From contig CAVXJS010000011.1 of assembly GCA_963762145.1 (NCBI GenBank), positions 608,001 through 672,000 of the forward strand: 64,000 nucleotides of DNA, read 5' to 3'. This DNA comes from an uncultured Candidatus Rokubacteria bacterium. Its GTDB lineage: Bacteria > Methylomirabilota > Methylomirabilia > Rokubacteriales > CSP1-6. The notes under the pieces are model-generated. The model ran no database searches. It had not been told where the DNA came from and saw only the letters and a list, made by a program, of their open reading frames with translations. Below are positions 9,610 to 43,649 of the stretch, one piece after another. Both the position numbers and the translations under genes were made by a program. Within the stretch, counting starts at the first letter, position 1; every line of letters begins with the position of its first letter.

Positions 9610-10543
9610 CTAGCCGACCTCGACCAGCTCGAGCGCCTCGCGGCTCGGGCCCTCGATCATCACCGCGCGCGTGTCGCCGAGCGCGTAGGGCTCCTCGAGG
9701 AACCGCACGCCCTCGCCGCGCAGCTTGGCGACCCACGCGTCGAGATCGGTGACGCTGAGCGCGATGTGGTCGTAGAGCTGCCCGCGCGTGCTCGCGAGCG
9801 GCCGGTCGCCCTGGCGCATGTACCAGGGCAAGGCCACGTCGCCGAACACGACGGCGGCCGACGGCGTGCGGAACATCCCCTCGCGGTCCAGCGCCGGCCA
9901 GCTCCGGTCGGGCCCGCGCGGCACCGTGCAGGTGGACTCGGTCAGCGGCGCGCGGCTGGTGCGCCCGGCGTAGATCGGCGCGTTGAGGTGCGTCTGGTAC
10001 CAGAGCTGCGCGCAGAACGGGTCGTCCTGGTAGAGATGCACGTGGTTGAAGCGCTCGGCCGGGTGATTGCCGGCGTATTCCACCAGGGCGTCGTCGGGGC
10101 CCCGCATGTAGCCGAAGCCGCCGGTGCGGGTCGGCTGCACGCCGGTGGCCCGGGCCTCGGCGATCTGCGCCTTCGTCAGGCCGGGCGTGCGGTCCCTTGC
10201 TCGGCCACGTATCGCTGCTGACGAGGACGGAGCCGCCTTCGTCGGTCCCCGGTGTAGAGCGGCAGGAGCTCGACATCCGGCCGGGCCTGGTAGACCGCGA
10301 GGCTGGCCCGCGTGTCCGGCACGTGCCAGCCGAAGTGCCAGATCGCGGTCTGCGGGGACGTCGCGGGCGGCGTCGCGACGCGGGTGAAGAGGATCAGCAC
10401 GTTGTTCGGCGCCGCGAGCGCGGGTCAGGCCGCCCCAGCGCGTCTTCGTGGAGGTCGGGAACGTGCCGGACGTAGAACTCGATCGCCGCGTCGGGGTCGA
10501 CCGAGTTCAGGTGGAGATGATGGAAGCCCGGCGCGGGGAGCAT
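9610..10543 (-). CDS. Multi-domain VOC/glyoxalase family protein (frameshifted 10140-10470)
   Basis: Start MLPAPGFHHLHLNSVDPDAAIEFY at 10543. Motifs IWHFGW, FNHVHL, YDHIALSV...LELVE. Confidence 0.75.
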
Positions 10544-10544
10544 C

Positions 10545-11174
10545 TCAGCGCGCCTCTCCCGCCGCCTCGGCCCTGGCCTGCTTCACGAGCTGCTCCAGGA
10601 CCTCGTAGGGCTGCGCGCCCACCACGCCGCGGTGGCCCGCGACGAAGGTCGGCACGCCGGTGATGCCGTACTGGCGCGAGAGCGCCCAGTCCCGGTCCAC
10701 CGCGTCCTTGAACGTCCGCTTCTCCAGCACCTCGCGGGCGCCGGCGACCGGCAGGCCCACCTCCGCCACGATCTCGAGGAGCACCGCGGGCTCGGAGATG
10801 TTGCGCGCCTGCACGAAGTAGGCGCGGAACATCGCGTCGTGGAACGCGTCGCCCCCCGGCTGGGTGTCGGCCCACTTGCCGAGCTCCTGGGCCAGGCGGC
10901 TGTTGTAGGTCATCGTGCGCTCGCCATAGGGGAGGCCCTCGGCGTCCATGCGCGCCTTCATCTGCGCGTGCATGGCCTTGCGGTCCACGTTGCGGCCGCG
11001 GAACAGATCCTCGAGCGACTGGCCTTCCGGCGGCGTCTCCGGGTGCAGCGGGAAGTGCACCCACTCGATCGTGACGTCGTGCTCGGTCCGGAGCTTCTCA
11101 ATACGCACGGTACTGAGATAGCACCAGGGTCAGACGTAGTCGGAGAAGACCTGAACCGTGATGGGCGTGGTCAT
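10545..11174 (-). CDS. DsbA/FrnE-like thioredoxin-fold protein, probable selenoprotein (U15 in UPWC)
   Basis: ATG at 11174 has an AAGGAGG RBS and ATGA overlap. Reads MTTPITVQVFSDYV-TGA-PWCY, in frame with the 10545-11108 ORF (FPLHP, GITGVPTF, GAQP). Confidence 0.85.
11088..11128 (-). promoter_or_regulatory. Candidate bacterial SECIS stem-loop 3' of the in-frame UGA
   Basis: mRNA: CUGG-U-GCU-AU-CUCAGUAC-(CGUGC)-GUAUUGAG-A-AGC-U-CCGG. 8-bp upper stem, lower stem, and a G near the 5' end of the loop. Confidence 0.65.
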
Positions 11175-12136
11175 GTGGCCTCCTTGATGAGCTTCTGCAG
11201 GCTTCGCAGGCCGGGCGGGATCGGCTGGCCCTTGTAGCGATTGCCCCAGTTAGTGTACGACACCTCGCCGACGTAGATGTCCCCGCGCGAATCCACCGCG
11301 AGGCCGTGCGGGGAGACGAACTGGCCCGGCTCGAGGCCGGCCAGGCGGTCGCCGAGGCGCGCCAGCCGCTCGCCGCGGTGGCTGTAGATGCTGACCCGCG
11401 GCCCGATGTTGGGGACGTCGTAGTTGACGGGCAGCGCGCCGCCGATCTCCCCCACGTAGAAGCGGCCCTGGCCGCCGCGCTCCATGAAGAGGCCGGAGGG
11501 GCGGTGCATGTCGTGCCACTGCGTCTCGAAGCGGCCGTCGCCGTCGAAGACCTGGATGCGATGGTTCTCGCGGTCGGCCACGTAGACCCAGCCGTCGGCG
11601 TCGCAGCAGATGTTGTGGGGGATGTTGAACTGGCCGGGATCGGTGCCCGGCTCGCCCCACGAGCGGAGCAGGGTGCCGTCCGGCGCGAACTTGTGGATGC
11701 GCGCGTTGCCGTAGCCGTCGGAGACGTAGAGATCGCCCTGCGGGGACAGCGCGGTGTGCGTGCAGCGATGGAACGGCTCGCCGCTCATGTAGGGCTTGGG
11801 CGTGCCGGGGATGCCGATGGTCAGGAGCACCTTGCCGTCGAGCGTGCAGTGGCGGACGGTGTGATCGCCGTCGTCGGTCAGCCAGAGCGTGTCGTCGGGC
11901 GCCACGTGGACGCCGTGCGCGCGGTGGAAGACCCCCTCGCCCCAGGAGCGCAGGAAGTTGCCCTCGCGGTCGAGGACGACCATCGGGTGCGCGCCGCGGT
12001 TGAACGCGTAGACCCGGTCCTGCCGATCCACCCCGACCGCGGCCACGTCGGCGTTGAACTCCCGGCCGGGCGGCAGCTTCGCCCAGTCGCCCACCACCCG
12101 GTAGCGGTAGGCGCCGCTCCCCAGGATGGCCGCCAT
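11171..12136 (-). CDS. NHL-repeat beta-propeller (PAL/peptidyl-alpha-hydroxyglycine lyase-like)
   Basis: Repeats YVSDGYGNARIHKF, GQFNIPH, YVADRENHRIQVF, PHGLAVDSRGDIYV. Confidence 0.85.
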   Translation of the reverse strand: MAAILGSGAYRYRVVGDWAKLPPGREFNADVAAVGVDRQDRVYAFNRGAHPMVVLDREGNFLRSWGEGVFHRAHGVHVAPDDTLWLTDDGDHTVRHCTLDGKVLLTIGIPGTPKPYMSGEPFHRCTHTALSPQGDLYVSDGYGNARIHKFAPDGTLLRSWGEPGTDPGQFNIPHNICCDADGWVYVADRENHRIQVFDGDGRFETQWHDMHRPSGLFMERGGQGRFYVGEIGGALPVNYDVPNIGPRVSIYSHRGERLARLGDRLAGLEPGQFVSPHGLAVDSRGDIYVGEVSYTNWGNRYKGQPIPPGLRSLQKLIKEAT

Positions 12137-43043: not shown

Positions 43044-43649
43044 ATGCCCTCCGACCCGTTGGATCTCGAAAGCCTGCGCCGCCTTCTTGACGCGGGGTTG
43101 AGCCGGCGGCCGCGGGTGGCGCTGGACCGGAGCGATCTGGTGTCGGCGGCGGTGCTGGTGCCGGTGACCGATCACGATGGGCCCCACGTGCTCTTCACCA
43201 AGAAGACGGCGGGCGTGCCGCATCACAAAGGGCAGTTCTCGTTTCCGGGCGGCGTCGTCGAGCAGCGCGACGGCTCGCGGGTGGAGACCGCGCTGCGGGA
43301 GGCGTGGGAGGAGATCCGATTGCCCGCCGAGGCGGTCGAGGTGCTCGGGCTCCTCGACGACACGGAGACGCGCGCCACCAACTTCATCATCACCCCGGTG
43401 GTCGGCATCGTCCGGGACCCCGTCGACTTCGCCCCGGACGGCCGCGAGATCGAGCGCGTGCTGGAGGTGCCGCTCACCACGCTGCGGGATCCGGCCATCT
43501 TCCGCACCGAGATCTGGGAGCGCAACGGCGTGCCGCACCCGGTGCTGTTCTATCAGGTCTCGGGCGAGGACGTGATCTGGGGCGCGACGGCGCGCATCCT
43601 GAGCCAGTTCCTCGAGCTGCTCGACGGGCCCGGAGCGCCCGCGCCGTGA
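43044..43649 (+). CDS. CoA pyrophosphatase (Nudix)
   Basis: AAVLVP, HKGQFSFPGG, ALREAWEEI Nudix box, IWGAT. Confidence 0.9.
   Translation: MPSDPLDLESLRRLLDAGLSRRPRVALDRSDLVSAAVLVPVTDHDGPHVLFTKKTAGVPHHKGQFSFPGGVVEQRDGSRVETALREAWEEIRLPAEAVEVLGLLDDTETRATNFIITPVVGIVRDPVDFAPDGREIERVLEVPLTTLRDPAIFRTEIWERNGVPHPVLFYQVSGEDVIWGATARILSQFLELLDGPGAPAP

Follow-up and report, generated by a model that had tools for sequence, protein, structure and literature searches.

The locus lies on the minus strand of the window, the whole stretch of 64,000 nucleotides that was analysed. It holds a predicted selenoprotein gene and its two neighbours, with the following features:

11171..12136, minus strand: upstream NHL-repeat gene, 321 aa (Pfam NHL, E 2.4e-20); its stop overlaps the selenoprotein start
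11179..11185, minus strand: Shine-Dalgarno-like AAGGAGG, 4 nt upstream of the ATG, read from the sequence
11172..11174, minus strand: ATG start codon, overlapping the stop TGA of the NHL-repeat gene (11173-11171)
10545..11174, minus strand: coding sequence of the predicted FrnE/DsbA-like selenoprotein, 209 aa (translation with TGA as U)
11130..11132, minus strand: predicted Sec codon UGA, residue 15; TGA is invariant in 51/51 orthologs
11093..11122, minus strand: predicted bacterial SECIS core (MFE -12.5 kcal/mol, z -4.75)
11106..11108, minus strand: GTG, the table-11 false start of a 187-aa ORF (10545..11108), inside the SECIS apical loop
10650..10652, minus strand: codon of Pro175 in the GVPTF loop, the conserved active-site proline of the thioredoxin fold; invariant in 38/38 aligned sequences
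9610..10543, minus strand: downstream VOC/glyoxalase-like gene, beginning one base past the selenoprotein stop and split over three frames

Reading frame and neighbouring genes

The initial annotation had placed the start at ATG 11174, with an AAGGAGG ribosome binding site and an overlap with the upstream stop. Both were found, at 11185-11179 and 11173-11171 respectively. From this ATG the frame reads MTTPITVQVFSDYV-TGA(11132-11130)-PWCYL and runs on in frame into the 187-aa ORF called from GTG 11108, as had been described. The sequence statements of that annotation were all confirmed. The redox motif U15-P-W-C18 occupies codons 11132-11121 with the predicted Sec at the first position, and the stop is a TGA at 10547-10545. 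The start codon aligned with M in 35 of 51 orthologs; the others had V (13), L (2) or A (1) there. The false-start GTG corresponds to G24-U25-G26 of the apical loop of the hairpin described below.

The translated product gave a full-length match to Pfam DSBA PF01323 (E 4.8e-36; 124.8 bits against a gathering cut-off of 25.6), with residues 6-197 aligned to model positions 1-190 of 191. No NCBIfam model reached its cut-off for the 209-aa protein. The best match there was a (seleno)lipoprotein family with 37.7 bits against a cut-off of 190, and the protein is not a member of it.

The Pfam Glyoxalase match of the VOC gene fell on its 9610-10140 piece. A relative (L028) has an intact VOC open frame of 312 codons that matches the three frames of the window, and 16 of the 18 VOC genes in related loci have a single uninterrupted frame that aligns over 306-312 residues. 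Because of these indels or frameshifts in the next gene, the base-level quality of the assembly must be regarded as imperfect. In 80 related loci the neighbours were NHL (25), PTE (15) and VOC (18). They were too variable for a pathway to be inferred from gene context.

A GC3-based filter was also applied to the window to look for other hidden selenoproteins. This filter missed the FrnE/DsbA-like gene because the SECIS codons lower local GC3. The one motif-like candidate that it gave, NCPLUCG (TGA 43225-43223, minus strand), had no Pfam match, reads as a non-coding frame and was rejected.

The hairpin after the UGA and the Sec machinery

A SECIS-like stem-loop had been noted right after the UGA. 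It is present and fits all constraints of the bSECIS model. As given in PMC13188914 (Fig. 2 legend), this model calls for an apical loop of 3-9 nt with G within its first two positions, an upper stem of 4-16 bp, a distance of 16-37 nt between UGA and loop and an MFE of at most -7.5 kcal/mol. In the present hairpin the loop measures 5 nt and has G then U at positions 2 and 3, the stem has 8 bp, UGA and loop lie 20 nt apart, and the MFE is -12.5 to -19.7 kcal/mol. The upper stem is CUCAGUAC/GUAUUGAG at 11117-11110 / 11104-11097, the apical loop is CGUGC at 11109-11105 with G24 U25 at 11108-11107, and the lower stem is GCU/AGC at 11122-11120 / 11095-11093.

The 30-nt core folds at -12.5 kcal/mol (z -4.75) and the 45 nt from the UGA at -19.7 kcal/mol (z -4.04), with 0/200 shuffles as good in both cases. 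For a 61-nt segment the values were -23.1 kcal/mol, z -2.63 and 3/200 shuffles. The 45-nt fold contains an outer helix, +5..+8 / +41..+44, which was not counted in the element. It is not conserved, because positions 42-44 vary freely in the 51 orthologs. A permissive Rfam search of 10400-11400 gave three chance-level matches (E 1.3-6.3), none of them SECIS-like, and the hairpin has no primary-sequence likeness to any Rfam family. With the bSECIS consensus, whose prototype is E. coli fdhF, it shares the small loop with G-U, the stem length and the UGA-loop spacing. It differs in being near-frozen in sequence, since the 42 nt counted from the UGA are invariant at 36 positions in 51 orthologs of 61-100% protein identity.

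The hairpin was said to be built from codons unusual for this genome, and codon counts bear this out. Four neighbouring Pfam-supported genes (1098 codons, GC3 0.95-0.98) use TAT in 1/27 Tyr, AGT in 0/42 Ser, CGT in 1/95 Arg and ATT in 0/49 Ile codons. All four are present within seven hairpin codons.

A search for selA, selB, selC and selD, which the initial annotation had called for, found the complete set in a genome that is 88% complete with 5.4% contamination. The tRNA-Sec scored 69.3 bits (cut-off 47) and was also called by ARAGORN as tRNA-SeC tca. SelA (577 bits), SelB (363 bits) and two copies of SelD (341 and 280 bits) were all over curated cut-offs. The genes for tRNA-Sec, SelA and SelB form a cluster on contig 9, which is not the contig of the window. 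One SelD lies on the window's contig and has its own in-frame TGA.

Conservation of the UGA and of the hairpin

The aligned codon is TGA in 30/30 loci and in a further 21/21, giving 51/51 orthologs with identity down to 61%. Among the matches listed, an in-frame TGA is present in every one that reaches 60% identity and includes residue 15. The TGA/TGC alternation that had been suggested as a check was found in the 80 best loci from named genomes. Two of these end before the motif, and the other 78 have 75 TGA, 2 TGT and 1 TGC. These ortholog counts are not independent, because the genomes are related and the locus sets overlap.

The hairpin follows the codon, being retained in the TGA forms and gone in all three orthologs with a Cys codon. 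In one Cys form (L164), whose peptide is otherwise similar, the Arg and Ile codons CGT ATT have relaxed to CGC ATC. SelB was over cut-off in 2/2 distant genomes with the UGA form and in 0/3 genomes with the Cys form, whose completeness is not given.

Conservation of the hairpin among UGA-bearing orthologs had been named as a test, and 99.8% of cells were paired, compared with 28-45% when the partners were slid. The stem changed in one way only, by a compensatory replacement of U-A with C-G, seen in 3 sequences from one genus. With 8 of 11 stem pairs never varying and a single pair showing a two-sided change, possibly one event, the covariation support for the hairpin is thin. Third-position entropy in the 51 orthologs was 0-0.48 bits for codons -6 to +36, and ∼0.8-1.5 bits from codon +39 on at residues invariant in at least 50/51 orthologs. 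As judged from these alignments, this freezing of synonymous sites across the hairpin indicates selection at the RNA level. The frozen 42-nt stretch probably reflects a double constraint, as its bases also specify helix 1 of the enzyme.

A near-identical 42-nt stretch occurs in orthologs of 67-72% identity from genomes labelled Alpha- and Betaproteobacteria, and in one ortholog genome labelled as proteobacterial the gene lies ∼0.7 kb after selB. A paralog family found in the same taxonomic class, ∼30-37% identical, has UGA at the same codon and a hairpin of other sequence with G-U at the same offset. It is conceivable, and in our judgement unlikely, that the hairpin is frozen in sequence and not in structure alone. 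Gene and SECIS might then travel between phyla as a unit matched to a particular SelB type, or the hairpin might do a further job, for example hiding the internal GTG start or adjusting expression to the supply of selenium.

Sequencing runs were also searched. No run held half or more of the words of the stretch, and all matches were contigs; because the run data are contigs, strand, transcript ends and expression level cannot be read from them. The contigs from two soil DNA runs and two RNA-library runs showed no difference at 11130-11132 among the stronger differences listed, a list that leaves aside 160 weaker ones. One RNA-library contig (X16, record 23) spans 11089-11290, taking in the ATG, the UGA and a portion of the hairpin. 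Such contigs cannot prove transcription, because RNA libraries can contain DNA.

A probable FrnE-type selenoprotein and the alternatives

The structure model of the protein (pLDDT 96.9) has strand 1 at residues 5-11. Its best fold match was FrnE (5coh/5co3/5xwh), with TM 0.90, rmsd 1.7 Å over 213 columns and 34% identity. FrnE of Deinococcus radiodurans (DR_0659; 5cnw, 5coh, 5cp1, 5xwh) was also the best solved sequence match (residues 4-203, E 1.2e-25). In this alignment (PDB 5cnw/5cp1) U15 falls on Cys22, the first Cys of CPWC, and the U15 column is Cys in 37/37 full-length homologs. The proposal that the UGA sits at the nucleophilic Cys is thereby upheld. D12, C18 and P175 are likewise invariant, and Pro175 is presumably the cis-proline of the fold. 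Besides Sec15 the protein has a single Cys, Cys18, and it ends at residue 209 without a C-terminal CxxxxC recycling motif. It has no signal peptide, since strand 1 starts at residue 5 and leaves no room for one.

According to PMC8945050, FrnE belongs to the subfamily of that name (cd03024) and is a disulfide oxidoreductase of the cytoplasm. The x-P-W-C centre and the lack of a signal peptide, both part of the subfamily definition given there, are shared with the present protein. The differences are the predicted Sec in place of Cys22, a length of 209 aa compared with 260 aa, and the missing FrnE tail with 239-CxxxxC-244. This absence does not exclude membership, because the same source describes FrnE of S. 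roseofulvus and of D. maricopensis as also lacking the CxxxxC motif.

The second-best solved relative was SCO1869 of Streptomyces coelicolor (PDB 3gl5; E 1.3e-16, TM 0.88), a putative DsbA oxidoreductase that has no selenoprotein annotation and is functionally uncharacterised in the entry title. Periplasmic DsbA of the E. coli type shares the thioredoxin fold with a helical insertion and the Pfam clan. Its centre is CPHC, whereas the present protein has x-P-W-C and no signal peptide, and the two match at only TM 0.54-0.64 and 15-20% identity. With the Pfam model starting at residue 6, assignment as a periplasmic DsbA oxidase was rejected.

Close shortened relatives are named "predicted DsbA family dithiol-disulfide isomerase" by JGI, which we take to be the COG2761 name. 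A DsbA-like UxxC selenoprotein family ("form 1", PF01323, COG2761) was described in 2005 (Zhang, Fomenko & Gladyshev, PMC1088965), and DsbA-like selenoproteins also appear in Zhang et al. 2006 (PMC1794560) and in a 2026 review (PMC13188914). As far as these descriptions go, form 1 and the present protein have in common PF01323, UxxC with Sec first, a downstream SECIS with a loop guanosine, and widespread Cys homologs. The present gene belongs to a Methylomirabilota/Rokubacteria soil branch, as judged from record titles, and is set beside the published examples by description only. It is a new entry in a known family, neither a new mechanism nor a new family.

Taken together, it is very probable that the gene encodes a predicted 209-residue cytoplasmic thiol-disulfide oxidoreductase of the FrnE type (DsbA fold), in which the nucleophilic first residue of the CxxC-type motif is Sec (U15-P-W-C18). 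The initial annotation had taken it for a selenoprotein cut short by gene callers; machinery, UGA conservation and hairpin conservation all agree with this, and none of its three refuting conditions came about. On the mechanism established for bacteria, SelB.GTP.Sec-tRNA(Sec) would bind the hairpin, which begins 12 nt past the UGA and carries G24-U25 in its apical loop, and this complex would bring Sec to the ribosome at UGA15 in place of termination. By analogy with FrnE and with enzymes of the thioredoxin fold, Sec15, placed at the N-terminal end of helix 1, would attack substrate disulfides, and Cys18 would resolve the mixed intermediate to give a selenenylsulfide. Since there is neither a signal peptide nor a C-terminal CxxxxC, the oxidised form would need an external reductant for recycling.

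If the UGA instead terminated translation, the true product would be the 187-aa protein from GTG 11108, or nothing would be made from upstream. Table-11 ORF calling gives this product, 116/120 of the best database relatives are annotated in this way, and 61/150 of the best cluster representatives start just past the site. However, the shorter form would lack strand 1 (residues 5-11) and the whole redox motif, and the Pfam DSBA match begins at residue 6. The 14 codons upstream of the UGA show conservation at the protein level: FSDYV hardly varies, and most changes are synonymous or conservative. The GTG has no Shine-Dalgarno sequence and lies inside the loop of a stable hairpin, whereas ATG 11174 has AAGGAGG. 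We consider termination at the UGA highly unlikely. A further explanation takes the gene for a pseudogene or the assembly for faulty, so that a Cys codon was either hit by a nonsense mutation or miscalled at one base; it could draw on the frameshifted VOC gene next door. Yet the same TGA stands in 51/51 orthologs from separate assemblies and in the contigs of independent soil runs, which carry no listed difference at the site, and the protein is conserved on both sides of it. This explanation is effectively refuted, and the claim that the TGA is not a sequencing error stands.

The UGA might also be read through as Cys, Trp or Gly by a near-cognate tRNA, a suppressor or a reassigned TGA, with the hairpin merely stimulating read-through. 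Gly is indeed recorded at the Sec position in two database relatives (P0008, P0018), but this may come from a source gene caller that used a TGA=Gly table. TGA is an ordinary stop in the same genome, both for the selenoprotein gene and for its upstream neighbour, and the Sec pathway there is complete. Homologs have Cys at the position in 37/37 cases, never Trp or Gly. The SelB-type hairpin carries its loop G-U at a fixed offset in two families, and SelB was found with the UGA forms and not with the Cys forms. All of this argues for insertion of Sec, and leaves read-through with another residue very improbable.

The predicted selenoprotein points to a systematic error in the databases searched. 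Among the 120 best database relatives, 116 are 180-194 aa long and cover just 84-89% of the query, and of the best 150 representatives of 50%-identity clusters, 61 begin directly past the Sec codon. The branch thus appears there almost exclusively as fragments that lack the active site, an annotation that can now be corrected. One well-supported entry is added to the selenoproteome of soil Methylomirabilota/Rokubacteria. The UGA forms and the Cys forms, in which hairpin and SelB are lost in parallel, show in a clean natural case how codon choice is shaped by SECIS constraints.

Reading frame and redox centre

The gene occupies 11174..10545 on the minus strand of the window. Its 5′ end carries the following signals.

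11185-11179, minus: AAGGAGG ahead of the ATG, read from sequence
11174-11172, minus: start codon ATG, read from sequence
11108, minus: GTG start of the 187-aa ORF, from ORF calling (translation table 11)

The ATG overlaps the stop TGA of the upstream gene (11173-11171). The frame reads MTTPITVQVFSDYV, TGA (11132-11130) and then PWCYLSTVRIEKL, and continues into the 187-aa ORF of table 11. Translation with TGA as U gives a 209-residue product. On re-reading, all coordinates that the initial annotation gave were correct, and so were its AAGGAGG, stop overlap and in-frame 187-aa ORF. Its claim that gene callers shorten the protein also holds, as table 11 begins at GTG 11108 and yields 187 aa instead of 209. 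Because the Pfam DSBA match (PF01323, E 4.8e-36, model positions 1-190 of 191) spans residues 6-197 of the 209-aa protein, the 187-aa call lacks the first strand and the entire redox centre.

Database records are mostly short at the same end. Of the best 120 relatives in a set of 5.8 billion proteins, 116 have lengths of 180-194 aa and align to 84-89% of the query. The other four reach 95-99%, with the motif CPWC in P0003 and P0120 and GPWC in P0008 and P0018. When 1.84 billion cluster representatives were searched exhaustively, 8317 relatives passed E ≤ 0.001, of which 149 also passed E ≤ 1e-30. Within the best 150, the active site is covered in 42; in 61, residue 1-3 of the entry already lies opposite query residues 19-40; another 36 are fragments from further along, and the remaining 11 are of other kinds. 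No NCBIfam model reached its cut-off for the protein.

The alignment set consisted of the protein and 37 full-length homologs, 35 of which represent clusters at 50% identity and two of which are closer. Position 15 is Cys in all 37, and D12, C18, G51, P175 and G186 are invariant too. The closest solved relative by sequence is Deinococcus radiodurans FrnE (5cnw/5cp1, E 1.2e-25). Since SDYV-U-PWCY aligns with FrnE SDIACPWCY, the UGA stands exactly at the first, nucleophilic Cys, as originally claimed. An AlphaFold2 model built on this alignment (mean pLDDT 96.9, pTM 0.92) has strand 1 at residues 5-11 and helix 1 from residue 16, directly after Sec15. The top five Foldseek matches were FrnE entries (TM 0.89-0.90, rmsd 1.7-2.0 Å, 33-34% identity), followed by SCO1869 (TM 0.88). 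In contrast, the likeness to periplasmic DsbAs was only TM 0.54-0.64. The N-terminus leaves no space for a signal peptide, so the selenoprotein is cytoplasmic; FrnE is predicted to be cytoplasmic (PMC8945050). The C-terminal CxxxxC tail of D. radiodurans FrnE is missing from the window protein, whose sole Cys is Cys18.

The hairpin downstream of the UGA

With the U of the UGA numbered 0, an upper stem pairs +15..+22 with +28..+35 (CUCAGUAC/GUAUUGAG) around the loop CGUGC, and a lower stem pairs G10-C11-U12 with A37-G38-C39. The 21-nt stem-loop, the 30-nt core, the 45 nt from the UGA and the 61-nt fold have energies of -7.5, -12.5, -19.7 and -23.1 kcal/mol and z scores of -4.34, -4.75, -4.04 and -2.63, with 1, 0, 0 and 3 of 200 shuffles equally good, respectively. 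The bacterial SECIS model of PMC13188914 has an apical loop of 3-9 nt and an upper stem of 4-16 bp (Fig. 2 legend there), a G as loop base 1 or 2, usually with G or U after it, a UGA-to-loop distance of 16-37 nt and an MFE ≤ -7.5 kcal/mol. The window hairpin, proposed earlier as SECIS-like, agrees with it in every constraint: its loop is 5 nt, its stem 8 bp and its spacing 20 nt, G-U occupies loop positions 2-3, and its energy is -12.5 to -19.7 kcal/mol. The false start GTG 11108 is formed by loop bases G24-U25-G26.

The initial annotation considered the hairpin codons unusual, and this proved correct and strong. In 1098 codons of four nearby Pfam-supported genes (GC3 0.95-0.98), TAT makes up 1/27 Tyr codons, AGT 0/42 Ser, CGT 1/95 Arg and ATT 0/49 Ile. 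All four occur inside seven codons of the hairpin, where local GC3 falls to 0.67. Across 51 orthologs, third-position entropy is 0-0.48 bits from codon -6 to +36. From codon +39 onward it is about 0.8-1.5 bits, even at residues invariant in at least 50/51 orthologs (among them Pro +81, His +87, Pro +99 and Gly +108). The 42 nt that begin at the UGA have 36 invariant positions and exist in only 15 distinct versions, the commonest seen 27 times.

Base pairs were counted in 50 sequences (43 distinct), with L052 excluded for a downstream indel. The hairpin is conserved among UGA-bearing orthologs, with 99.8% of 473 cells paired, versus 28.5-44.6% when the 3′ partners were slid by 1-3 columns. Eight of 11 stem pairs are constant, and another is unpaired in a single cell. 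One changes on one side, from U-A to U-G, in 13 sequences. One changes on both sides, U20-A30 to C-G, in three sequences of one genus (AGT>AGC with ATT>GTT). Covariation in the hairpin is thus real but thin. Loop positions +23 and +26 are variable, and G24 and U25 never change.

A second DsbA-like family of the same class, about 30-37% identical and with the motif DYL-U-PWC, has UGA at the same codon in 11/12 fetched loci (L077 and L079-L088); in L078 the motif was not found by pattern search. In 10/11 of these loci a GC-rich hairpin of different sequence places loop G-U at +24/+25, the loop being GGU at the same offset as in the window; L084 folds differently. Between the two families hairpin structure is thus conserved, with little likeness of stem sequence. 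Searched with this query, the window's own genome gave no member of the second family, only a partial match of 31% identity that has no TGA.

Conservation of the UGA and the Sec machinery

A search of 61 genomes (60 relatives and the window's own) gave a match at E ≤ 1e-20 in 31, and all 30 loci returned carry TGA at the same codon. Class-wide, 147/251 genomes matched at E ≤ 1e-15, counting paralogs as well as three genomes that are unpublished (G135, G243 and G094). Every listed match of at least 60% identity that covers residue 15 has an in-frame TGA; those scored as having none at this identity are partial matches short of residue 15. With a further 21/21 loci, eight of them at 61-67% identity, the total is 51/51 orthologs, excluding L055 from an unpublished genome. 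Named species-representative genomes gave 458 related stretches; the best 80, which overlap the earlier searches and so are not independent, comprise 75 TGA, 2 TGT, 1 TGC and 2 ended by a contig end before the motif. They may include the three unpublished genomes, and dropping up to three TGA rows leaves the picture the same. By their record titles the relatives belong to Methylomirabilota/Rokubacteria. The expected alternation between TGA and Cys codons is present.

The three Cys forms (L158, L161 and L164; 68-69% identity) have Burkholderiales/Betaproteobacteria titles, and all have lost the hairpin. Two carry a different peptide, LASARVARL, in GC-rich codons. L164 differs from the window at two residues (LSTPRIERL vs LSTVRIEKL); its 3′ arm is broken because the retained Arg and Ile are encoded by CGC ATC, not CGT ATT. 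SelB was above cut-off in both distant UGA-form genomes (L157, 373.5 bits; L160, 431.7 bits) and was not found above cut-off in the three Cys-form genomes, all five assemblies being of unstated completeness. The best SelB-profile matches of the Cys-form genomes (105-196 bits) are confined to the GTPase part, the pattern that other translation GTPases would give. In L157 (record title uncultured beta proteobacterium) the selenoprotein ortholog (1501-2106) follows the C-terminal part of SelB (256-834) at a distance of about 0.7 kb on the same strand, an arrangement seen in 1/80 loci.

The window's own assembly (6.26 Mb, 25 contigs, 88% complete, 5.4% contamination) was searched for selA, selB, selC and selD, and all were above cut-off.

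Contig 9: tRNA-Sec, 69.3 bits (cut-off 47); ARAGORN tRNA-SeC, anticodon tca
Contig 9: SelA, 577.4 bits (cut-off 267.9)
Contig 9: SelB, 363 bits (cut-off 242.25), model 1-580 of 581
Window's contig: SelD copy 1, 341.4 bits (cut-off 125), with its own in-frame TGA
Contig 14: SelD copy 2, 280.5 bits (cut-off 125), no in-frame TGA

The three contig 9 genes adjoin. As one of the two SelD matches carries an in-frame TGA, SelD itself is probably a selenoprotein in this organism. That copy lies at contig 11, 419505-420437, about 190 kb upstream of the window.

Other readings of the TGA were weighed. The code is not reassigned, since both the selenoprotein gene and the gene upstream of it end in TGA as an ordinary stop. 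P0008 and P0018 are full-length, 76-77% identical and have Gly at the Sec position (YSDYVGPWC, FTDYVGPWC), which may reflect a real GGA codon. Apart from this residue, P0008 nearly matches the translated TGA-bearing locus L043, and our guess is that the source's gene caller used a table in which TGA means Gly. The whole stretch is present in no public run (best DNA runs 0.39-0.43 of sampled words, RNA libraries ≤0.15). Contigs from two soil DNA and two metatranscriptome runs aligned at ≥88% likeness, and among the differences listed, which leave aside 160 weaker ones, none falls at 11130-11132 (deepest bin). One RNA-library contig spans 11089-11290, though contigs cannot prove transcription. 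UGA conservation, the SECIS fit, the Sec machinery and Cys in the homologs together support the 209-aa selenoprotein first proposed, and we are highly confident that the gene encodes a real selenoprotein.

Gene neighbourhood and proposed function

13092-11171, minus: PTE and NHL genes (Pfam PTE E 7e-83), preceding the selenoprotein gene
10543-9610, minus: VOC/glyoxalase-like gene, directly downstream, split over three reading frames

PTE, NHL and the selenoprotein gene have overlapping or abutting stop and start codons and form a compact four-gene block with VOC. The tight arrangement recurs in just 15-25/80 loci, limited to closer relatives, and this context says little on function. The VOC gene is intact in the same-genus relative L028, where its open frame has 312 codons; in 16 related loci the alignment runs through 306-312 residues without a change of frame. 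Soil-metagenome contigs have one base fewer than the window at 10425/10427/10433 and at 10462/10463. The window copy is either a pseudogene or carries assembly indel errors. Elsewhere, a read-through frame with a CxxU-like motif, NCPLUCG (43172-43549, minus), was rejected as a selenoprotein, having no Pfam match and looking non-coding.

In the best-supported reading, a cytoplasmic oxidoreductase of the FrnE type would receive Sec at codon 15 through SelB and the SECIS element. Sec15 would attack and Cys18 resolve, giving a selenenylsulfide. Recombinant FrnE has disulfide isomerase and insulin-reduction activity, and disruption of frnE brings sensitivity to cadmium and diamide (PMC8945050). The window protein may plausibly serve in redox stress in a similar way.

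A DsbA-like selenoprotein family (COG2761, UxxC) was described in 2005 from nine Sargasso Sea sequences (PMC1088965), and a 2006 listing gives a DsbA-like selenoprotein in Anaeromyxobacter dehalogenans, Desulfovibrio desulfuricans and Desulfotomaculum reducens (PMC1794560). A 2026 review has the entry "DsbA-like protein form 1, PF01323, UxxC" and mentions 63 predicted selenoprotein genes in one Methylomirabilota MAG (PMC13188914). The selenoprotein thus belongs to an already known family, and its value lies mainly in the correction of annotation.
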